From: Minisyncoccota bacterium | GTDB taxonomy: Bacteria; Patescibacteriota; Minisyncoccia; Phycocordibacterales; UBA9973 | Assembly (NCBI GenBank): GCA_041664745.1 | Contig: JBAYKD010000002.1 | Location: 6,126-70,125 of the forward strand | Direction: 5' to 3' | Length of the DNA stretch: 64,000 nt | Shown: positions 4,512 to 62,773 of the stretch, in pieces | Layout of the letters: each line of letters opens with the position of its first letter | Position numbering within the stretch: position 1 is the first letter of the stretch | Notes under the pieces: model-generated | What the model was told of the DNA's origin: nothing | Seen by the model: the letters and a program-made list of their open reading frames with translations, nothing else | Database searches by the model: none | Position numbers and translations under genes: made by a program

Positions 4512-6779
4512 TTATAATTTCTTAGTTTTTAATCGTAATGAGTTTCCGACGACAGAAACACTTGATAATGCCATAGCCATACCAGCGAATATTGGATTTA
4601 ATACTATCCCCCAAACAGGGTAGAGGAGTCCGGCTGCAACTGGAATCCCTATTATATTGTATATGAATGCCCAGAAAAGATTTTGCTTAATTCCTCGCAT
4701 GGTTAATTTTGAAAGGTGGACAGCTTTTGTTATTTTTGAAATATCTCCATGGAGAATTGTTATTCCAGCACTCTCTATTGCTACATCAGTCCCAGTGCCC
4801 ATAGCTATACCTACATCAGCTTGGGCTAAAGCAGGGGCGTCATTTACACCATCTCCAGCCATAGCCACTATATATCCCTTATTTTGCAATTCTTGTATTT
4901 TATTTAGTTTATCTTCTGGCATTACTTCAGATATAACCTCGTCGATACCAACTAATTTACCTATATAGTTTCCAGTATTTTTATTATCCCCTGTGAGCAT
5001 TATGGTTTTGATTCCCATTTTATGAAGATTTTTAATTGCATCTACTGCTTCTGGTTTGATAGCATCAGAGATCATTACAAAGCCCAAAACTTTCTCGAGG
5101 GTTGCCAATATCACAGGAGTTTTACCTTCCATCGTTTCTTTTTCAATTTCTTCTTTATCAAAACTTAGACTTAGATCAGTTAATAATTTTATATTACCTG
5201 CAAAATACTCTATTTTATTTATTGTACCCTTTAATCCTTTGCCTTTTATGATTTCAAAATTTTCAACATCACTTATTTTTATATTTTTTTCTTTGGCGTA
5301 GTTTATTATTGCATGAGCAATAGGGTGCTCGGATTTATTTTCTAAGGTTGCAAGGATTTTTATTAAATCATTATCATTTAAAACTCCGTAATTTTTAATA
5401 CTAACTAATTCAGGTTTACCTTTTGTGATGGTTCCAGTTTTATCTACAACAATTACGTTTACTTTATGTAATTTTTCAAGAGTTGCCGCATCTTTTATAA
5501 GTATTCCTTCTTTAGCACCAAGTCCGACTCCTACAATAATAGCTGTAGGTGTCGCGAGTCCTAGCGCACATGGACAAGCTATCACTAGAATCCCAACAAA
5601 TGATGATAATCCAAATGAAAGAGCAGATGAGAATCCTAAATAGTAAGCTCCTACAGAAAGCCAAATTATAAGGGTTAGAAATGCTATACCGAGAACAATA
5701 GGAACGAAAACGCTAGATATTTTATCTGCGAGTGCTTGTATAGGAGCTCGGCTGCCCTGAGCATTTTCAACCATTTTAATTATATGAGCCAAGAATGTTT
5801 CAGACCCAACCTTTGTCGCCTTGAAAGTGAAGGCACTATTAGTATTGAGAGTGCCTGCGATAACAGTATCACCAATGTTTTTCTCTGCCGGCATTGGTTC
5901 TCCTGTAACCATTGCTTCATCTATAAAAGAACTCCCTTCTGTAATGATTCCATCCACAGGGATTATTCCTCCTGGTTTCACTATTATAAAGTCTCCATGA
6001 ATTACTTCATTAATAGAAATTTCAATTTCTTTTCCATTACGAATTACGAGTGCAGTCTTTGCTTGGAGATTTAAAAGTTTTTCTATTGCATCACCAGTCT
6101 TAATTTTTGAACGAGCCTCAAGATATTTTCCAAGTGTTATAAATGCTATAACTATTATAGTCACATCAAAATATGTTTGATTTACATTTAGATATGGAGC
6201 CAAAGTTTCTTCAAATGCTCCAATGATGAAGCTATACAAGAAAGCAACAGAAGTTCCTATTCCTATCAGAGTATCCATATTTGCTTTTCCATGACGAAGA
6301 AAACGAGATAGTCCAAGTAGATAAGGCTTACCTACGACAAAGAGGGTATAAGTAGCAAATATAGGGAGCAAATGATGGAAGAATTCTTTCCAAATATTTG
6401 GCATTACTCCTACGAGATGTAATTCTGCAAATATATCCCAACCCATAATAAAGACACTAATGATAGCTAGGGGGATAACAGTCATGAGTATTGTCTTCAT
6501 GTTTTTCAACTCCATGAGTTTCTCATGTTTGGAAGTATTCATTCCCATGTGCATCATATGTTCATTTTCTTCATCTAAGGCTAGTGTATATCCCAATGGT
6601 TCTATTTTTTTTGATAGTTGTTTGCCATTTGTTTTATCTTTATCAAAATTTAGTTTGGCAGTTTCTGTCGCGTAGTTTACTTCCACGGATTCTACGCCGT
6701 CAGTTTTTTTGAAAGTTTTCTCTATTATTCCTGCACAACTTGCGCAATGCATACCTTTTATTTTATATGTTTTGTTCAT
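4512..6779 (-). CDS. copA: copper-translocating P1B-type ATPase
   Basis: N-terminal HMA motif GMHCASC, a His/Met-rich linker HMMHMGM, the CPC transmembrane motif (IACPCALGLATP), the phosphorylation site DKTGTIT, and the hinge GDGVNDAPAL. Confidence 0.95.
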   Translation of the reverse strand: MNKTYKIKGMHCASCAGIIEKTFKKTDGVESVEVNYATETAKLNFDKDKTNGKQLSKKIEPLGYTLALDEENEHMMHMGMNTSKHEKLMELKNMKTILMTVIPLAIISVFIMGWDIFAELHLVGVMPNIWKEFFHHLLPIFATYTLFVVGKPYLLGLSRFLRHGKANMDTLIGIGTSVAFLYSFIIGAFEETLAPYLNVNQTYFDVTIIVIAFITLGKYLEARSKIKTGDAIEKLLNLQAKTALVIRNGKEIEISINEVIHGDFIIVKPGGIIPVDGIITEGSSFIDEAMVTGEPMPAEKNIGDTVIAGTLNTNSAFTFKATKVGSETFLAHIIKMVENAQGSRAPIQALADKISSVFVPIVLGIAFLTLIIWLSVGAYYLGFSSALSFGLSSFVGILVIACPCALGLATPTAIIVGVGLGAKEGILIKDAATLEKLHKVNVIVVDKTGTITKGKPELVSIKNYGVLNDNDLIKILATLENKSEHPIAHAIINYAKEKNIKISDVENFEIIKGKGLKGTINKIEYFAGNIKLLTDLSLSFDKEEIEKETMEGKTPVILATLEKVLGFVMISDAIKPEAVDAIKNLHKMGIKTIMLTGDNKNTGNYIGKLVGIDEVISEVMPEDKLNKIQELQNKGYIVAMAGDGVNDAPALAQADVGIAMGTGTDVAIESAGITILHGDISKITKAVHLSKLTMRGIKQNLFWAFIYNIIGIPVAAGLLYPVWGIVLNPIFAGMAMALSSVSVVGNSLRLKTKKL

Positions 6780-6791
6780 TGTGTTTTATAG

Positions 6792-6910
6792 AACACTCCA
6801 TAAAATTATTCTCGGACTCACCACACAATAAAATTCTACTGAATTTTTTGCTCGTACTCGGCTCGTCGGCCTCCGTAAGGGTTCGCTCGAGAACATTTTT
6901 GTTGCGTGTT
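6792..6910 (+). repeat. about 119-nt palindromic intergenic element, copy 1 (fills the csoR-copA spacer)
   Basis: Near-identical to the reverse complement of 58469..58587 and clearly related to 29959..30075. Imperfect ~25-nt terminal inverted repeats (AACACTCCATAAAATTATTCTCGGA / reverse complement AACACGCAACAAAAATGTTCTCGAG). The core is GC-rich (GCTCGTACTCGGCTCGTCGGCCTCCGTAAGGGTTCGCTCGAG). Confidence 0.85.
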
Positions 6911-6912
6911 AT

Positions 6913-7176
6913 TTACTTTCTCTTCAAACCATAAACTTTTAATATTTCCTCCGTCGCCTTTTTTGTTTGACCTTTTTGTATTTGGTGGACGAGGCAGGTG
7001 CCTAGGTGGCTTTCCATTAAAGCATCCTCTACCCCCGAGAGAGCTTGCTTCACGGCCGAAGTCTGAGTAATGATATCTATACAGTATGTTCCTTTTTCGA
7101 CCATTTCCTGTAAGCCTCGAACTTGTCCTTCAATAATCTTTAAACGACGTATTAGTTTTTGATTGTTATTATGCAT
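6913..7176 (-). CDS. csoR: CsoR-family copper-sensing transcriptional repressor
   Basis: 87 aa, DUF156-like helical protein with C-H-C ligand positions (GTYCIDII ... SHLGTC). It lies upstream of copA on the same strand. Confidence 0.85.
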   Translation of the reverse strand: MHNNNQKLIRRLKIIEGQVRGLQEMVEKGTYCIDIITQTSAVKQALSGVEDALMESHLGTCLVHQIQKGQTKKATEEILKVYGLKRK

Positions 7177-9097: not shown

Positions 9098-9136
9098 AAG
9101 TATATAGTAGCATAAAAAATCACGAGACCGTGAGAC

Positions 9137-9161
9137 TATAGCAAGGACCGTCCTTGCTATA
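9137..9161. repeat. perfect 25-nt palindrome TATAGCAAGGAC-C-GTCCTTGCTATA (TAGCAAGGACC family)
   Basis: Perfect dyad symmetry. The same motif occurs at 60665..60693 and 62695..62732, with half-sites at 60652..60664 and 63212..63223. Confidence 0.8.
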
Positions 9162-9286
9162 GTATGGCGGGAACGTGAGTACACTTATCGATCATTACAT
9201 GACCAGTATCCCAATTCGTTTCGGTTAACACCGAAAAACGAATTGGGCTTCGATTTCCGCACGCTTCATCCGCAGGGATGAAGCTC

Positions 9287-9340
9287 ATCTCCACATAAGA
9301 AAAAACCTCATCGGAATGAGGTTTTTTCTTATGTGGAGAT
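9287..9340 (-). terminator. 25-bp perfect inverted repeat / bidirectional terminator overlapping the tmRNA 3' end
   Basis: ATCTCCACATAAGAAAAAACCTCAT-CGGA-ATGAGGTTTTTTCTTATGTGGAGAT. The inner part is a classic A-tract / hairpin / T-tract. The outer 7 nt are complementary to the tmRNA acceptor 3' strand. Confidence 0.7.
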
Positions 9341-9733
9341 GGCGGGAATCGAACCCGCGTGCAGGAGGGAATCTTATAGAATTCTACATGTTTAGTATGT
9401 TCATTTTGTTTTAACCATTTACTCTAGAGAGCATACAAGAAAAGTAAATAACGAGCTTTAAATTGTAGAACTTTACATCAAGCATTTGTAAAATCGTAAC
9501 CCGATAAATTATGCCCACTCTTTATATCGGATGTCAAAAGAGTAGACATCGTCCAGACCTAAATTTAGGCGAGGGCGAAAGCGGATTGCATACCGAATGC
9601 CGAAGCAAAAGGCGATACTATCGCTCTAGCGACTTTGTTTGCACTTAGTCTTTTCCAAGAAGTTTTAAAAGATTCCTGAGTACTTTACATGCATATATAA
9701 GATGATTCCTCTTGTCGAAGCCGATCATCCCCC
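9334..9733 (-). ncRNA. ssrA: tmRNA (transfer-messenger RNA)
   Basis: The minus-strand 5' end is GGGGGATGATCGGCTTCGAC. The 3' end is GCGGGTTCGATTCCCGCCATCTCCA (T-arm plus acceptor). An internal reading frame at 9565..9642 would encode ANKVARAIVSPFASAFGMQSAFALA*. The gene is directly adjacent to smpB. Confidence 0.9.
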
Positions 9734-18467: not shown

Positions 18468-18476
18468 AAAAACAAT

Positions 18477-18510
18477 AAAAAATACCCCTTATACAAAGGG
18501 GTATTTTTTA
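18477..18510 (+). terminator. rho-independent terminator after the kinase-like gene
   Basis: AATACCCCTT-ATACA-AAGGGGTATT followed by TTTTA. Confidence 0.65.
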
Positions 18511-18560
18511 TTTGGAATAGTGGTATAATGTAATTATATTAATAATATTGTTATATTTTT

Positions 18561-19403: not shown

Positions 19404-19769
19404 ATGAACATACAAGAATTAAAAGATTTTTTTATAAAGAGTGATTTTTCTGATAGTACAAAGTCTGTCATAGCTTCTATTCTAGCCGACAAGACAGAAG
19501 TGACCCCAGGATTAGTTGCTCAAGTTAAAGATGTTTTACAAAAAGAATTAGACGCTGATTTTAAAGAAATGGGAGTTGATGCGACGAATGATGTAGAGGC
19601 TCAAAAGTTAGAGGGGGAATATATGGATGAATTAAATACAATTGAGAAGGATTTGAATGGTGATATGGAATTTGTCGAAAAAGAATTGGGAGAACTTGAA
19701 GAAACTAGAAAACAAGTATTGAAGATCTCTGATGAAATGGAAGCAGATGTAATAAAACAATCGATCTAA
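19404..19769 (+). CDS. small acidic coiled-coil hypothetical protein
   Basis: 121 aa with a very acidic C-terminal half (EGEYMDELNTIEKDLNGDMEFVEKELGELEE). It begins 6 nt after the preceding gene. Confidence 0.45.
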   Translation: MNIQELKDFFIKSDFSDSTKSVIASILADKTEVTPGLVAQVKDVLQKELDADFKEMGVDATNDVEAQKLEGEYMDELNTIEKDLNGDMEFVEKELGELEETRKQVLKISDEMEADVIKQSI

Positions 19770-19770
19770 T

Positions 19771-19815
19771 AAAAACAAAAAATATCCCTTAAAATAAGGG
19801 GTATTTTTTGTTTTT
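19771..19815. terminator. bidirectional terminator between 19404..19769 and recG
   Basis: AAAAACAAAAAATATCCCTT-AAAAT-AAGGGGTATTTTTTGTTTTT. Confidence 0.7.
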
Positions 19816-19818
19816 ATT

Positions 19819-22185
19819 TTATTCAAAATGCAATTTGAGATTTTTTGATTTAATTATTTCTGAGATGACGGGAAAGGATTTTAGATCTGTGTCAACCTCA
19901 ATCATTTTGATAGCTTCTGTTCGGGCAGCTTCTACCATTTTTATATTCTTTATAGCTTCCATGCCGAGGTCGGTAATGCCCCATTGCTTCTCTCCTCCCA
20001 AGAGTCCTGCTCCACGGAGCGATAGATCGAGCTCAGCAAGCTCAAATCCGTTTGATGCTTTTGTAATAGCCTTCAGTCTCTCGATTGTTTTGTCTGATTT
20101 AGCATCAGCAAATAAGTAGCAGTAGGATTGAAAAGTTGAACGAATAACTCGTCCGCGAAGCTGGTGGAGCTGGGCGAGACCGAAACGTTCTGCTCCTTCT
20201 ATTATGATTACAGTTGCGTTGGGGACGTTCACTCCGACTTCTATAACAGAAGTTGAGACCAATATATCAATTTTTTTATCGGCAAAATCTTTCATAACCT
20301 TCTCTTTTTTCTCCTTCGTCATCTTGCTGTGCATTATCTCAATATTATAATTTGGAAAGATGTCTTTCTTTAGTCTTTTGGCTTCATCATTAACAGTTCG
20401 AAGCTCGGAGATATTACTTCCGTCAGCACGCAATAAATCTCTGGTGAGATTTTTGCTAGTGCTCGGCTCGACTTCCTTACAGGAACAGTACACCTTTTGG
20501 ACACTTTGATTACAAAGTTTCTCAAAAGGTCTTGCGGAAGCTTCAGGTATTCGCTTCCTCACCTGCGTGAGGCTTCCTGAAGCAATATCTCCGAGCTTCT
20601 CACTTTCCTCACCGATTTTTGGACAAATTACATAAAGCTGTCGTCCTTCTTCTAATTCTTTCTTAATTTTTTCATAAGCTTCTGCTCTTTTATTTTCTTT
20701 TACTATTTCTGTGATGACTTGCTTGCGGCCAAGTGGCATCTCATCAATGATACTCAAATCCAAGTCGCCATAAATAGTGAGCGCAAGTGTGCGGGGGATA
20801 GGTGTCGCTGTCATTGATAAATAATGTGGGGCATGGCCATGCTTCTTTACCAACTTCATTCTTTGGTTTGTTCCAAATCTGTGTTGTTCATCTATTATTA
20901 CAAGCCCTAGATCTTTAAACTCTACGGTTTTAGATATGAGAGCATGTGTGCCGATCACTATCGGTATCTCACCATTTTTAATCCATTTCAAAAGCTGATT
21001 CTTGGCAATTGGCGTCCATGTTTTTATTTGTGAGCCTTTCTCCCATGGTGCACTTTTACTAGGGAATTTACGGCAACCAGAGCCTGTCATAAGAGCAATA
21101 GATATGCCAGTATGTTCGAAATATTTGATAAAGTTCTCATAAAGCTGGGTAGCGAGAACTTCTGTCGGAGCCATATAAGCGACTTGCAGATTACCAAAAT
21201 CTCCATACCGAGAAGTTCCTGTAGTATTCTTTATTACTGCGTATGCGATAGTTGCTGCTACGAAAGTTTTTCCACTCCCGACGTCACCTTCAAGTAGGCG
21301 TGACATTGGTTTGTCTTTCACGAAATCGGTCAAAATAGTATCGATTGTATTTGTCTGTGCCTTCGTGGGAGTGAAAGGGAAGCGAGATATAAAGTCATTA
21401 ATATCTTTCTCAGGTATTTTTAATTTATATGAAAAGTTTTCTTGATACTTCTTCTTCTCTTGCTGGCGTGAAAGCTGAATGAAAAAAACTTCTTCGAAAG
21501 CAAATCTTTTGCGAGCTATTTCTGCGTGTTCTCTCTTTTGTGGCATGTGGACCCATATCAAAGCTGTATGTAATGCTGGTAAATTATATTTATTTAATAT
21601 TTCGCTCGGTATATAGTCCACAATATCTTTCACGCAATCCTGCTTTAGTATCTTCTGTATAGCGTGATAGAACCATTTGGAAGTGATACCTCGACTTTCT
21701 CCATATACAGGGAAGCCGAATTGAGTTTGCTTTTCTTTATTATTGAAAAGTGAATCGTCGATATCTATAGGGAGAATATCTTCTTTGTTTATTTCTGGAT
21801 TGGTCAACGTAAGTCCATAAGTTTTATTATTCGTGACTTTGCCCGTTACTCGCACAGTTGAATCCTCCTTAAGCATTTTTGCTAAGTAGGGTTGATGAAA
21901 CCAAATAATATTTATAGAGGAGGTTAAGTCTGTGAGTACCGCTTGCCCCATTGGTATTTTACTTTTGAACCCTTTTTTAGTTTTTAGTCCATTTATTTTC
22001 CCAAGTATTGTTACATTTTCTCCATCCTTTAATGTATTTATATTTCGGACTTCACTTATATCACTGTAGCGAGAGGGGAAGTGATAAAGTAAATCCTTTA
22101 AAGTTTTTAAACCAAGTGTCGCTAGTGCTTTCTTTTGATTTACATCAACACGAAAATGATTTTCGATTTTATCGCCTAGATTCAT
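19819..22185 (-). CDS. recG: ATP-dependent DNA helicase RecG (carries a 66-aa in-frame insertion)
   Basis: Wedge/OB N-terminal domain, Walker A GDVGSGKT, DEQH box, QxxGRxxR-type motif HQLRGRVIRS, and C-terminal TRG region. See the insertion feature at 20400..20599. Confidence 0.9.
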   Translation of the reverse strand: MNLGDKIENHFRVDVNQKKALATLGLKTLKDLLYHFPSRYSDISEVRNINTLKDGENVTILGKINGLKTKKGFKSKIPMGQAVLTDLTSSINIIWFHQPYLAKMLKEDSTVRVTGKVTNNKTYGLTLTNPEINKEDILPIDIDDSLFNNKEKQTQFGFPVYGESRGITSKWFYHAIQKILKQDCVKDIVDYIPSEILNKYNLPALHTALIWVHMPQKREHAEIARKRFAFEEVFFIQLSRQQEKKKYQENFSYKLKIPEKDINDFISRFPFTPTKAQTNTIDTILTDFVKDKPMSRLLEGDVGSGKTFVAATIAYAVIKNTTGTSRYGDFGNLQVAYMAPTEVLATQLYENFIKYFEHTGISIALMTGSGCRKFPSKSAPWEKGSQIKTWTPIAKNQLLKWIKNGEIPIVIGTHALISKTVEFKDLGLVIIDEQHRFGTNQRMKLVKKHGHAPHYLSMTATPIPRTLALTIYGDLDLSIIDEMPLGRKQVITEIVKENKRAEAYEKIKKELEEGRQLYVICPKIGEESEKLGDIASGSLTQVRKRIPEASARPFEKLCNQSVQKVYCSCKEVEPSTSKNLTRDLLRADGSNISELRTVNDEAKRLKKDIFPNYNIEIMHSKMTKEKKEKVMKDFADKKIDILVSTSVIEVGVNVPNATVIIIEGAERFGLAQLHQLRGRVIRSTFQSYCYLFADAKSDKTIERLKAITKASNGFELAELDLSLRGAGLLGGEKQWGITDLGMEAIKNIKMVEAARTEAIKMIEVDTDLKSFPVISEIIKSKNLKLHFE
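20400..20599. mobile_element. palindromic GC-rich element inserted in-frame in recG (198-bp core)
   Basis: Perfect 16-bp terminal inverted repeat GAAGCTCGGAGATATT / AATATCTCCGAGCTTC. 20401..20598 is 198 bp, or 66 codons. It has internal nested hairpins and shares the core ATTTTTGCTnGTnCTCGGCTCG with the intergenic element family. Confidence 0.75.
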
Positions 22186-28663: not shown

Positions 28664-29956
<1,293 letters not shown>

Positions 29957-29958
29957 AA

Positions 29959-30075
29959 AACACTCCATAAGAATATTCTCGGACTCACCACGCATATTTC
30001 CTTGCTAGGAAATTGCTCTGCTCGGCCCAGTCGGCCTGCGCAAGTGTTCCCTCGAGAACATTCTTATTACGTGTT
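29959..30075 (+). repeat. about 117-nt palindromic intergenic element, copy 2 (3 nt after the eno stop)
   Basis: The termini match copy 1 (AACACTCCATAAGAATATTCTCGGACTCACCAC ... CTCGAGAACATTCTTATTACGTGTT). The central core is diverged (GCTCTGCTCGGCCCAGTCGGCCTGCGCAAGTGTTCC). Confidence 0.8.
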
Positions 30076-30108
30076 TTTTTAAAAAATATTTTGTGATACA
30101 ATATATAT

Positions 30109-44381: not shown

Positions 44382-45035
44382 ATGACATTCATAAAGAAAC
44401 AAGAAAATACAGGGTTTACCCCCACACCAACTTTCAAGAGTAGGGGAAAGTTGGTGTGGGGGTTTACACTTATAGAGCTAATGATCGCTACTTCATTATT
44501 TACTGTTATTATGCTTATGGGAGTAGGATCTCTAGTTGTGTCTTCAAATTCATCGAAGGCTTCCCAAAAGCTTAGAATCACAGTGGATAATGTAAATTTT
44601 GCTATGGAGAACATGACTCGTGAGCTTCGCATGGGAACTAATTATGAGTGTGCAACATCATTTGTTAATTTAGCTAGCCCAATTCCCACTGATTGTCCCT
44701 TGGGAACTACACCTGGGAATATAATTGCTTTTAATCCACAGCAAACCTTAGGTGCTCCACTTAGAGTTTCTTATCAATTAAAACCAAGAAATGACGCTAC
44801 AGGAACTAACAGCCTAGAGAGATGTGAGATCAATACAACTCCTTGTTCCGAGATTGTTTCACCGGATGTTGATATAAAGACGTTAAAATTTTTTGTAAAA
44901 GGTTCCCAAACTAATGATACTATTCAACCTAGTGTAGAAATTTTAATAAAAGGAGTTGTGACTATTAAGAATAAAAATATTTCTAAATCCTTTACTCTCC
45001 AAACAATGACTTCGCAACGTTCAGCAGAAAAATAA
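44382..45035 (+). CDS. minor pilin / pseudopilin
   Basis: Long leader followed by G|FTLIELMIATSLFTVI. Confidence 0.75.
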   Translation: MTFIKKQENTGFTPTPTFKSRGKLVWGFTLIELMIATSLFTVIMLMGVGSLVVSSNSSKASQKLRITVDNVNFAMENMTRELRMGTNYECATSFVNLASPIPTDCPLGTTPGNIIAFNPQQTLGAPLRVSYQLKPRNDATGTNSLERCEINTTPCSEIVSPDVDIKTLKFFVKGSQTNDTIQPSVEILIKGVVTIKNKNISKSFTLQTMTSQRSAEK

Positions 45036-46110: not shown

Positions 46111-48198
46111 ATGGAAGATAAAAAATTAAAAAACCGAATAGTTAAACTTCGGAAAGAGATTTCTCGTCTTCGCTCTGAATATCATGAGAAGAATAATCCG
46201 AAAGTTACCGATGATGTATATGAGTCCTTATCTCGCGAGCTTAAAGATCTTGAAAGTAAATATCCCGAATATCTCGATCCAAATAGCGCTATAAATAGAG
46301 TAGCGGGCAAACCTCTACCGAGTTTCCAAAAAGTGAAGCATGACATAAGAATGCTTTCTTTGAATGATGTTTTTTCTGAAGAAGAGATTACAGATTGGGA
46401 AACTCGTATCTCAAAAATTTTAGAGAATTCCAATTCTTTAAATTATTTTTGTGAAGTGAAGCTTGATGGTTTGTCAGCCTCGCTCCACTATAAAGATGGA
46501 GTTTTTGTGAGAGGGGCCACGAGAGGAGACGGATGGATAGGGGAAGATGTAACCGAAAATTTAAAAATGATTTCGTCTATACCACTTCGATTGGATGGCG
46601 ATATCAAGGGCGATGTTGAAGTTCGTGGTGAAGTTGTAATGACGAAAAAGGCGTGGGAGAAATTGAATAAAAAACAAGAAGAATCTGGCAAAACAATTTT
46701 TGCAAATACTCGTAATGCTGCTGCAGGGAGCCTCCGTCAGCTTGATCCGCAAATAGTAAAGGAGAGGAATCTTGATTTTTTTGCTTGGGATATAGCACAA
46801 TATCCTACAAGTATTTCTAACCACAGCGATAAGCATAAAATTTTGAAAGATATTGGTTTTCAAATTGCCCCATACGATAAAAAGGCCAAGAATTTAAAAG
46901 AAGTTTTTTCTTTTATAAAAGAGATTGGAAAAGTACGAGCAGGTTTTCCTTATGGTACTGATGGTATGGTTATCTCTATTGATAATTTAGAGATACAAGA
47001 AAGTTTAGGCTATGTGGGTAAGGCACCAAGATATATGACTGCGTATAAATACGAAGCGGAGAGAGCGACAACAGTAGTGACCGATATAACTGTGAATGTT
47101 GGAAGAACGGGCGTGATGACTCCACTAGCACACTTTAATTCGACTCTGGTTGCTGGTTCGACTATTTCAAAAGCAACATTACACAATATGGATCAGATAG
47201 AACGCCTTGATATAAGAGTGGGTGATACTGTCGTTATTCAAAAAGCTGGCGATGTTATTCCTGAGATTGTAGAAGTACTTATAAATATGCGTACTGGGAA
47301 AGAGAAGAAATTTAAAATGCCAGAATTTTGTCCGGTATGTAATTCTAAAATTGAACGTAAGACTGGAGTCGGAGAAAGTCCTATGAGCAACTGGTCTGGC
47401 ACCGGCTCCCGTCCCCCTCGTCCGAGGACCTTGCGAAGAGGAGCTTTCTCCGACTCCAGTCTGTCTTCTTCTGTGGCTTTTTACTGCACTAATAAAAACT
47501 GTCCTGCTAGAAGTAGGAGAGGCATGCAACATTTTGTAAATATATTTGAAATTTATGAGATAGGCCCAAAAATTCTTGATAGATTAAAAGATGAAGGACT
47601 TGTCACAGATGCGGCTGATTTATTTACACTTGAGAAGGTTGACCTTTCAGGGCTCGAAAGGTTTGGGGAAAAATCTGCCGACAACATTATTAAATCTATT
47701 GATATTCACAGAGTGGTTTTACTTTGGAGATTTATATATGCTCTTGGAATTATTCATGTAGGGGAGCAGACGGCTCGCGATCTTGCGAACCATTTTGGTT
47801 CTCTTACCGAGATATCAAAAGCCAGTGAAGAGAGTATAAATAGTATAGAAAATATTGGACCTGTAGTGAGTAAGAGTATATATGAATATTTTAGACAAAA
47901 AGAAAATATAGCTTTTATGGACAAGTTATTTAAAAATGGAGTTATTATTGATAATACATCTTTAAAGGGAACTTTTAGACTTAAAGATAAAATATTTGTT
48001 TTAACAGGAACTCTGGAAACCTTATCTAGAGATGATGCCAAAAAAATGATTATCAAAGAAGGTGGCAGAGTCTCTTCTTCTGTCTCAAATAAGACGGATT
48101 ATGTAGTGGTTGGAGCAGAACCTGGAAGTAAATATGAAGATGCTAAGAAAATTGGGGTAAAAACTCTCACAGAAGATGAATTTCTAAAAATATTGTAA
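46111..48198 (+). CDS. ligA: NAD-dependent DNA ligase LigA (carries a ~33-aa in-frame insertion in the Zn-finger)
   Basis: Adenylation site CEVKLDG, OB fold, Zn-finger CPVC...C..NC, HhH repeats, and C-terminal BRCT (FVLTGTL...). Confidence 0.95.
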   Translation: MEDKKLKNRIVKLRKEISRLRSEYHEKNNPKVTDDVYESLSRELKDLESKYPEYLDPNSAINRVAGKPLPSFQKVKHDIRMLSLNDVFSEEEITDWETRISKILENSNSLNYFCEVKLDGLSASLHYKDGVFVRGATRGDGWIGEDVTENLKMISSIPLRLDGDIKGDVEVRGEVVMTKKAWEKLNKKQEESGKTIFANTRNAAAGSLRQLDPQIVKERNLDFFAWDIAQYPTSISNHSDKHKILKDIGFQIAPYDKKAKNLKEVFSFIKEIGKVRAGFPYGTDGMVISIDNLEIQESLGYVGKAPRYMTAYKYEAERATTVVTDITVNVGRTGVMTPLAHFNSTLVAGSTISKATLHNMDQIERLDIRVGDTVVIQKAGDVIPEIVEVLINMRTGKEKKFKMPEFCPVCNSKIERKTGVGESPMSNWSGTGSRPPRPRTLRRGAFSDSSLSSSVAFYCTNKNCPARSRRGMQHFVNIFEIYEIGPKILDRLKDEGLVTDAADLFTLEKVDLSGLERFGEKSADNIIKSIDIHRVVLLWRFIYALGIIHVGEQTARDLANHFGSLTEISKASEESINSIENIGPVVSKSIYEYFRQKENIAFMDKLFKNGVIIDNTSLKGTFRLKDKIFVLTGTLETLSRDDAKKMIIKEGGRVSSSVSNKTDYVVVGAEPGSKYEDAKKIGVKTLTEDEFLKIL
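47360..47462. mobile_element. palindromic GC-rich element inserted in-frame in ligA
   Basis: Perfect 19-bp inverted repeat AGACTGGAGTCGGAGAAAG / CTTTCTCCGACTCCAGTCT flanking a GC-rich core (GGCACCGGCTCCCGTCCCCCTCGTCCGAGGACCTTGCGAAGAGG). 47362..47460 is 99 bp, or 33 codons. Confidence 0.75.
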
Positions 48199-58419: not shown

Positions 58420-58458
58420 ACCCCTCCGCCTATGGCACCTCCCCTTAGCAGGGGAGGA
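58420..58458 (+). repeat. GC-rich C-tract/G-tract hairpin element (family B), immediately after the pyrG stop
   Basis: GACCCCTCCGCCTATGGCACCTCCCCTTAGCAGGGGAGG, with stem CCTCCCC/GGGGAGG. It is collinear with the reverse complement of 33262..33324. Confidence 0.65.
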
Positions 58459-58468
58459 AAAATACAAA

Positions 58469-58587
58469 AACACGTAATAAAAATGTTCTCGAGCGAACCC
58501 TTACGGAGGCCGACGGGCCGAGTACGAGCAAAAAATTCAACAGAATTTTATTGTGTGGTGAGTCCGAGAATGTTTTTATGGAGTGTT
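58469..58587 (-). repeat. about 119-nt palindromic intergenic element, copy 3 (inverted orientation)
   Basis: Its reverse complement differs from copy 1 (6792..6910) at only a handful of positions. Confidence 0.85.
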
Positions 58588-58603
58588 TTTTAAATTGTGA
58601 TAC

Positions 58604-60606: not shown

Positions 60607-60664
60607 ATTTATTTAATTTGACTTTAAATTTTTATGAAAATTTTTTAAGTATATAGCAAGAACC

Positions 60665-60693
60665 TATATAGCAAGGACCGTCCTTGCTATATA
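60665..60693. repeat. perfect 29-nt palindrome TATATAGCAAGGAC-C-GTCCTTGCTATATA (TAGCAAGGACC family)
   Basis: Perfect dyad, preceded by an extra half-site TATAGCAAGAACC at 60652..60664. It lies between convergent genes. Confidence 0.8.
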
Positions 60694-62694: not shown

Positions 62695-62732
62695 AGTAGC
62701 AAGGACCAAAGTATCAAGGACGGTCCTTGCTA
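62695..62732. repeat. split TAGCAAGGACC palindrome (11-bp arms, 14-nt spacer)
   Basis: The arm TAGCAAGGACC (within AGTAGCAAGGACC at 62695..62707) pairs with GGTCCTTGCTA (62722..62732). Extra CAAGGAC copies lie at about 62716 and 62747. Confidence 0.75.
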
Positions 62733-62773
62733 TCCTTATCTTATACAAGGACGATTTATGTTATAATAAATTC

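Follow-up and report, generated by a model that had tools for sequence, protein, structure and literature searches.

A palindromic insert in recG of a Paceibacterota bacterium is a member of a repeat family with intergenic copies

The stretch of DNA analysed here (64 kb, referred to below as the window) belongs to a low-GC bacterium in which the recG gene carries a long in-frame palindromic insert. The question raised by this locus is whether the insert and the similar elements lying between genes of the same window are one family, and how such an element came to lie in the reading frame of RecG. The recG insert and three intergenic elements are one family, and the insert is probably a rearranged form of a palindromic repeat (about 115-128 nt) that is non-coding and dispersed in Paceibacterota/Nomurabacteria, mobile and comparable with the Rickettsia palindromic elements (RPEs) or with transposable elements of the miniature inverted-repeat type (MITEs). 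RecG of the window is identical to a protein named RecG in a metagenome-assembled genome (MAG) of Candidatus Paceibacterota. The features concerned are as follows.

19819-22185, minus strand: recG (788 aa), host of the genic repeat copy, assigned by the list of open reading frames (ORFs) with translation and by the identical RecG-named MAG protein.
20395-20604, minus strand: the whole composite insert in recG, in which outer inverted-repeat arms enclose the family core and a nested segment.
20395-20427 and 20572-20604, minus strand: the outer inverted-repeat arms of the insert (33 nt each, 82% complementary).
20423-20483, minus strand: the conserved family core in recG, encoding VEPSTSKNLTRDLLRADG and including positions 20449-20470 of the earlier note.
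20484-20571, minus strand: the nested extra segment splitting the recG copy (about 87 nt net), encoding roughly RKRIPEASARPFEKLCNQSVQKVYCSCKE.
6789-6913, minus strand: intergenic copy IG1, between a csoR-like repressor gene and a P-type ATPase gene (neighbour identified by Pfam).
29956-30078, minus strand: intergenic copy IG2, of a divergent subfamily, starting at the enolase stop codon and antisense to enolase.
58466-58590, plus strand: intergenic copy IG3, between the convergent pyrG and LOG-family genes (neighbours identified by Pfam).

A 22-nt match between the recG insert and IG1 had been proposed in the earlier note, and its positions were confirmed (ATTTTTGCTAGTGCTCGGCTCG at 20449-20470 and ATTTTTTGCTCGTACTCGGCTCG at 6843-6865). 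The best local alignment of the two elements was on the same strand and extended over 48 nt (20423-20470 versus 6818-6865), with 38 of the 48 positions identical. It was ungapped, and the proposed T indel is superfluous. Its score of 46 was compared with those of 1,000 dinucleotide shuffles (17.7 ± 2.4, maximum 32) and with the best score of 515 other 241-nt segments of the window (28), and the match is better than expected by chance on both counts. It is not a GC-rich stretch of low complexity, since an A/T-rich hairpin is included: the 26 nt added to the former 22 nt hold CACGCAATAAA and this hairpin, which reads AAATCTC-TGGT-GAGATTT in recG, AAAATTC-TACT-GAATTTT in IG1 and ATTTCC-TTGCTA-GGAAAT in IG2, with a covarying stem. 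The similarity had also been said to continue (CTTCCTTACAGGAAC versus CCTCCGTAAGGGTTC); it does so for about 13 nt, to about position 20483 (GGCTCGACTTCCTT versus GGCTCGTCGGCCTCC), beyond which it is broken by the 87-nt nested segment.

Two covariance models were used for the search of further members, R1 being built solely from intergenic copies (17, all of other genomes) and R2 from 43 copies with the recG copy of the window left out; the R1 scan of the window was run with filters off. IG1, IG2 and IG3 were recovered with 128, 104 and 148 bits by R1 and with 118, 106 and 134 bits by R2, respectively. The recG core (20428-20483) was recovered with 25.1 bits by R1 (E about 5e-4), as the sole R1 match in the window beyond IG1-IG3 that covers the internal core rather than a generic long stem, and with 34.4 bits by R2 (E about 5e-7), ranking fourth after IG1-IG3. 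A/T-rich hairpins that are long, perfect and bordered on either side by A-runs and T-runs are found at gene ends (9286-9341, 18468-18513 and 19768-19818) and are likely bidirectional terminators. Such terminator-like hairpins reach 20-28 bits with the family models through their stem only, which marks the noise level of these models in practice.

Outside the window, R1 gave full-length matches to undisrupted recG copies (91-94 bits), to tsaD copies (86-93 bits), to LigA of P0206 (L032, 77 bits) and to RecG of P0075 (L034, 61 bits), and no match on the recG genes of L033 and L035, which have no insert. A model of intergenic copies thus recovers IG1-IG3, the recG core and the genic copies of relatives. 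Intermediates, which the earlier note had called for, also exist: recG copies of relatives match the intergenic-only model end to end, and L005 is an intergenic copy with genic-type arms. The family is small and multi-copy, with members of 115-128 nt, four copies in the window and about 45 copies in 257 kb of retrieved loci (chosen for containing a copy).

The distribution of the family was surveyed with a degenerate core pattern in 185,579 species, each represented by one genome. The 31 loci obtained all belong to Paceibacterota/Nomurabacteria or to closely related records of the candidate phyla radiation (one labelled Saccharibacteria), 18 being intergenic, 4 in recG and 9 in tsaD (identified by Pfam). 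When metagenomes were scanned for the genic subtype, 13 recG and 8 tsaD loci were obtained and no other host gene. Among the papers searched there was no report of such elements in Patescibacteria or Parcubacteria, and the palindromic repeat family is apparently undescribed for this phylum.

The fold of the intergenic copies, as predicted by RNAalifold, is a three-way junction that is closed by a stem of about 20 bp and bears a GC-rich arm and the A/T hairpin, with compensatory changes in 15 of 44 pairs. The same junction was obtained independently by MAFFT and RNAalifold from 16 mostly genic copies, with 98% of the base-pair positions paired and double changes in 20 of 34 pairs; none of 500 shuffles was as high, and slid controls were 36-54% paired. 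For 13 distinct orthologous recG copies in a gap-free alignment, 97.3% of positions were paired and 12 pairs carried double changes (2 of 500 shuffles), figures that are supportive and not probabilities, the structure having been read from one of the related sequences. One of these recG pairs occurs as GC, UA, AU and CG. In a variant with indels of -2 and -1 nt the hairpin is preserved but read in another frame (IFQQKNI in place of KNLSRDLL), and the constraint is therefore on the nucleic acid and not on the peptide.

Closing stems are about 20 bp long in all copies and differ in sequence between subfamilies, and further divergent subfamilies have the common core with different outer stems, in agreement with the earlier statement that members differ in their termini. 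That the outer stems were pre-existing target palindromes (terminators, for example) with the core inserted in their loops was ruled out for the intergenic subtype, in which the outer stems are homologous across non-orthologous sites.

In recG, tsaD and one ligA (about 35 loci), every genic copy reads without stops in one common frame of the coding strand (GAG CCG AGT, E-P-S), and these loci appear to trace to three insertion sites. Among the intergenic copies the genic frame is the best of six, being open in 15 of 20 and holding stops in the other 5, while one antisense frame is open in 12 of 20. The proposed filter, by which only stop-free members with lengths divisible by 3 would survive in genes, is supported in its general sense, on about three independent genic events; the intergenic elements are 123-127 nt, and divisibility by 3 holds for the net change only.

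The insert of the window is strongly palindromic: its fold z-score against shuffles is -8.8 on the coding strand and -9.2 on the opposite one, and the arms hold an exact 16-nt stretch (GAAGCTCGGAGATATT / AATATCTCCGAGCTTC). RecG aligns to RecG of Thermotoga maritima (1GM5) save for residues 533-602, where 70 residues stand for 8 in the solved T. maritima protein, directly after IEESDKLN. RecG orthologues fall into length classes of 722-733 aa (no insert, or remnants only), about 752-758 aa (a standard insert of about 29 aa, ...GSITEADGPSTSKKPSKVLLRADGNTLSELR) and longer forms. Because of the 722-733 aa orthologues and the 70 versus 8 residues, the segment is taken as an insert and not as ancestral sequence. 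The RecG genes of the P0004 type were considered as pristine empty sites and ruled out as such: the 'empty' recG of P0004 keeps the stem base GAGGTCGG|CGACCTC and L035 keeps a longer remnant, and both are therefore internal deletions of the palindrome. The AlphaFold2 model of RecG has a predicted local distance difference test score (pLDDT) of about 25 and no secondary structure at residues 526-594, consistent with a predicted floppy loop for the insert peptide.

The bounds of the nested segment were set by alignment with the recG copy of L036 (P0009), the closest copy without it. The right-hand 55 nt of the two are identical, and 87 nt stand in place of 'CT' between CGCAGG and GTCGAGCC (about 20484-20571), interrupting the GC-rich arm; 9 additional nt are present upstream, and about 4 arm base pairs differ, every one compensated. 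The recG copy of the window is a normal family member disrupted by the extra 87 nt. Read directly, the letters with which the nested segment opens (GTGAGG...CCTGAAGC) repeat the neighbouring left arm (GCTTCAGG...CCTCAC) imperfectly and in inverted orientation, and no second copy of the segment was found in the window or the retrieved loci. Different nested additions are carried by the standard RecG element in P0051 and P0081, and the palindrome apex seems prone to expansion. The same RecG loop (20395-20604 in the window) also carries other insert types in relatives, for example ELNTLERLGSATARARGIFQQKNIRA.

A resemblance of the core of a ligA insert in the window to the same family had been suggested as well.

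47360-47462, plus strand: in-frame palindromic insert in ligA, not a member of the recG/intergenic family, with an exact 19-nt terminal inverted repeat (AGACTGGAGTCGGAGAAAG / CTTTCTCCGACTCCAGTCT).

This suggestion failed: the local alignment score of 17-20 equals the shuffle mean, and the family membership shown for the recG insert and the three intergenic copies (by alignment, R1 and R2) does not extend to this insert. Its scores of 17.4 bits (R1) and 17.8 bits (R2) lie below those of the hairpins at 9287-9340 (25.8-28.5 bits) and 19766-19820 (21.1-22.6 bits). The ligA insert (fold z-score -5) is a separate palindromic in-frame element, and neither further copies nor an intergenic copy of it were seen in the window or the retrieved loci. 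LigA orthologues occur with and without the window-type insert (GESPMSNWSGTGSRPPRPRTLRRGAF), which is common to P0122, P0124, P0136 and P0164. The LigA zinc-finger loop in which it lies is an insertion hot spot: over a baseline of 655-672 aa, at least 6 unrelated in-frame insert types were found across Paceibacterota (orthologues P0121-P0240), and the same loop of P0206 (L032) carries the true recG/intergenic family member of 77 bits given above.

The 21 intergenic copies for which the context was recorded lie between convergent genes (11) or tandem genes (10, of which 4 sense and 6 antisense), and none lies between divergent genes; copy ends abut or overlap stop codons. Mobility is indicated by the spacer 3' of enolase, between enolase and a small ORF (METIQTF...). 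In genomes with enolases of 85-91% identity, this spacer is without element in L029 (13 nt) and in L045 and L040 (38 nt each), and is filled by IG2 antisense in the window, by a different subfamily antisense in L036 and by a third subfamily sense in L006. The enolase spacer is an insertion polymorphism at a single permissive site. The occurrence of several copies per genome, adjacent inverted pairs included, was also counted toward mobility. Such adjacent and oppositely oriented pairs, of different subfamilies in each case, were observed in L003 (4587-4711 plus and 4730-4855 minus) and in L025 (1943-2067 minus and 2066-2190 plus).

On these grounds the following history is proposed. The family would have spread by insertion, and in compact genomes the copies would persist only in permissive places, namely the spacers at gene 3' ends or the surface loops of proteins. 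Survival in a surface loop would need the one stop-free orientation and frame, the copy then yielding a floppy peptide. Such survivors would be the recG, tsaD and ligA copies, those in recG and tsaD having been inherited vertically in many species, and the recG copy of the window would later have gained 87 nt within its GC-rich arm. After insertion the stem halves kept changing together. This may be due to selection on a hairpin of RNA or DNA, or else to repair templated by the hairpin (template switching); the nested segment, which opens with a partial inverted duplication, hints at such repair. Exchange among copies is suggested by those orthologous copies that differ in entire helix variants.

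Several observations weigh against this account. The genic sites are only three (recG, tsaD and ligA), and the genic-subtype scan of metagenomes gave recG and tsaD only; the family is therefore not a prolific invader of genes. A target-site duplication could not be defined when the enolase spacers and the recG sites were compared, the termini being A/T runs or the flanks continuing the inverted repeat; one subfamily starts and ends with TA, which is ambiguous as a target duplication. No transposase or other mobilising enzyme was found, the sequence covered being 8-17 kb around each copy and no genome-wide search for one having been made. Taken as a whole, the AlphaFold2 model of RecG is of poor quality (mean pLDDT 61.6). 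Conservation is higher for copies at orthologous sites than for the flanking genes (86-98% versus 67-90% identity, a comparison biased by the retrieval of copies with an exact core pattern), and this higher conservation together with the covariation could mean a host function rather than selfish DNA.

The alternative that survives best, itself of rather low probability, is that the element chiefly serves the host as a structured RNA or DNA with a function of its own, such as stabilising or terminating transcript ends, attracting an RNase or binding a protein through a hairpin. Purifying selection would then explain the conservation and the compensatory changes, those in the recG and tsaD mRNAs included, and mobility would be secondary or ancient; this reading overlaps the preferred explanation and is compatible with it. 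It is favoured by the strong covariation in intergenic and genic copies, by the conservation of orthologous-site elements above their flanks and by the strict placement at gene 3' ends with none between divergent genes. The intergenic subtype, moreover, starts with an A-run and ends with a T-run (GTGTTTTT) on both strands and may have a non-canonical terminator role. The 'sense' strands of IG1-IG3 also fold 4-13 kcal/mol better than the opposite strands and hold more G-U pairs, a count biased by the prediction of the structure on the sense strand.

The tandem contexts (4 sense, 6 antisense) give no consistent transcribed strand for such a module. In the search with Rfam 15, only the tmRNA and tRNAs of the window reached gathering scores and nothing credible was obtained at IG1 even at E up to 10; a simple scan for intrinsic terminators found none at IG1 or IG3. 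A spacer that is empty in some relatives and filled in others by different subfamilies in either orientation is also unlike a required regulatory element. The preferred reading of a mobile repeat accounts for this spacer as an insertion polymorphism.

A further thought, which we hold unlikely, is that the three-way-junction fold is itself the selected unit: a hairpin-specific enzyme or an RNA-level function would recognise the fold and keep the arms complementary in recG and tsaD, and the re-use of loops and spacers by unrelated palindromes would be targeting and not only tolerance. If true, essential genes would carry a working nucleic-acid element within their reading frames.

Far less probable is a peptide module (GPSTSKK...LLRADG) selected as protein and exchanged among RecG, TsaD and LigA, with the intergenic copies as decayed gene fragments. 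The single reading frame of all genic copies, open in 15 of 20 intergenic ones, would be explained by it. The intergenic copies are, however, full-length and highly conserved palindromes and not gene fragments; the frame-shifted variant retains the hairpin and alters the peptide, the stems covary while the encoded residues change, and disorder is predicted for the segment. A profile search with the peptide gave, over 1.84 billion representative proteins, one real match, a TsaD, the rest being low-complexity noise, and a word-indexed peptide search gave only three tiny hypothetical ORFs, all lying on intergenic copies. A chance resemblance of unrelated GC-rich segments, for which nothing is left after testing and which only the ligA part of the claim resembles, has a practically negligible probability in view of the score of 46 beside maxima of 32 and 28, the retrieval of the recG site by the independent models R1 and R2 and the full-length homologues at the same recG site in relatives.

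Other palindromes were observed in the window. A shorter GC-rich palindrome (GACCCCTCCGCC..GGCACCTCCCCTTAGCAGGGGAGG) at 58420-58460, just upstream of IG3, has a homologue, DPLRPSGTSPLAGGG, that is inserted in frame in this same loop of RecG in other species (P0011, L058), with a local score of 59, and it therefore represents a second family in both intergenic and genic sites. A palindrome at 44411-44470 with 19 perfect stem pairs (ACCCCCACACCAACTTTC / GAAAGTTGGTGTGGGGGT) lies in frame in the leader of a prepilin-like protein (ORF at 44382-45035, plus strand), just before GFTLIE. A direct GGTTTAC repeat flanks the palindrome, which has the look of one more small palindromic insertion in frame with a target duplication. 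The near-perfect palindrome TATAGCAAGGAC(C/G)GTCCTTGCTATA is present in three copies in short upstream regions (9124-9160, 60654-60690 and 62697-62733) and may be an operator site of a transcription factor.

'Selfish palindromes' placed in frame in essential genes have mostly been regarded as an oddity of Rickettsia. That a lineage of the candidate phyla radiation also has them suggests their recurrence in small, gene-dense genomes with few insertion-tolerant sites. In the present case several families re-use the same RecG and LigA loops and the same spacers. For annotation, where RecG, LigA and TsaD of these organisms vary in length by 30-60 residues, the difference is repeat DNA and not a lineage-specific domain. 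A 20-bp stem that has kept evolving by compensatory changes within a reading frame offers a clean natural test case for selection on mRNA or DNA structure versus hairpin-templated repair.

In comparison with known systems, readings of the element as attC, REP or intein were set aside informally, on size, sequence and context. REPs are single hairpins of 20-40 nt with GTAG or CGTC heads (PMC3733652), whereas the unit here has 115-128 nt and three helices. The REP/BIME systems, with their RAYT or IS200/IS605-like transposases, are similar in that structure matters more than sequence, in that their copies are concentrated at 3' ends and between genes that converge, and in that a hairpin-recognising enzyme would be a plausible mobiliser.

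The bacterial MITE-like repeats with intragenic copies (ERIC/IRU of 127 bp, the 107-bp form of Correia/NEMIS and QMITE of Coxiella; PMC2229807, PMC2759123, PMC5896051) share with the family a size of about 100-170 bp, terminal inverted repeats, highly paired transcripts, a mostly intergenic location at gene ends, open-frame forms fused in frame to genes, and filled and empty sites among relatives. They differ in that neither TA nor any other target duplication is demonstrable for the repeat here and that no matching insertion sequence or transposase was identified, no whole genome having been scanned for one. In the family here, moreover, it is the internal core that is conserved while the outer stems vary between subfamilies; in a typical MITE, by contrast, conservation lies in the termini.

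The RPEs (Ogata et al. 2000, summarised in PMC2229807 and PMC10969869) are compared by behaviour ('works like') and not by sequence, no sequence relationship being expected. They are palindromic repeats of 105-150 bp with long stem-loops. In both systems the same palindromic repeat is found between genes and in frame in conserved housekeeping genes (here recG, tsaD and ligA, besides more than 20 intergenic copies), the resulting peptide is of no obvious use and is tolerated, one reduced genome harbours several families, and copies are kept at orthologous sites across species. The host here is a bacterium of the candidate phyla radiation and not an alphaproteobacterium, the genic sites are three as against dozens for RPEs, and the family here has a conserved three-way junction, its compensatory evolution inside genes being a possible further difference. 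In kind, the behaviour of the family fits that of the RPEs and of the intragenic ERIC and Correia forms (PMC2229807, PMC10969869).

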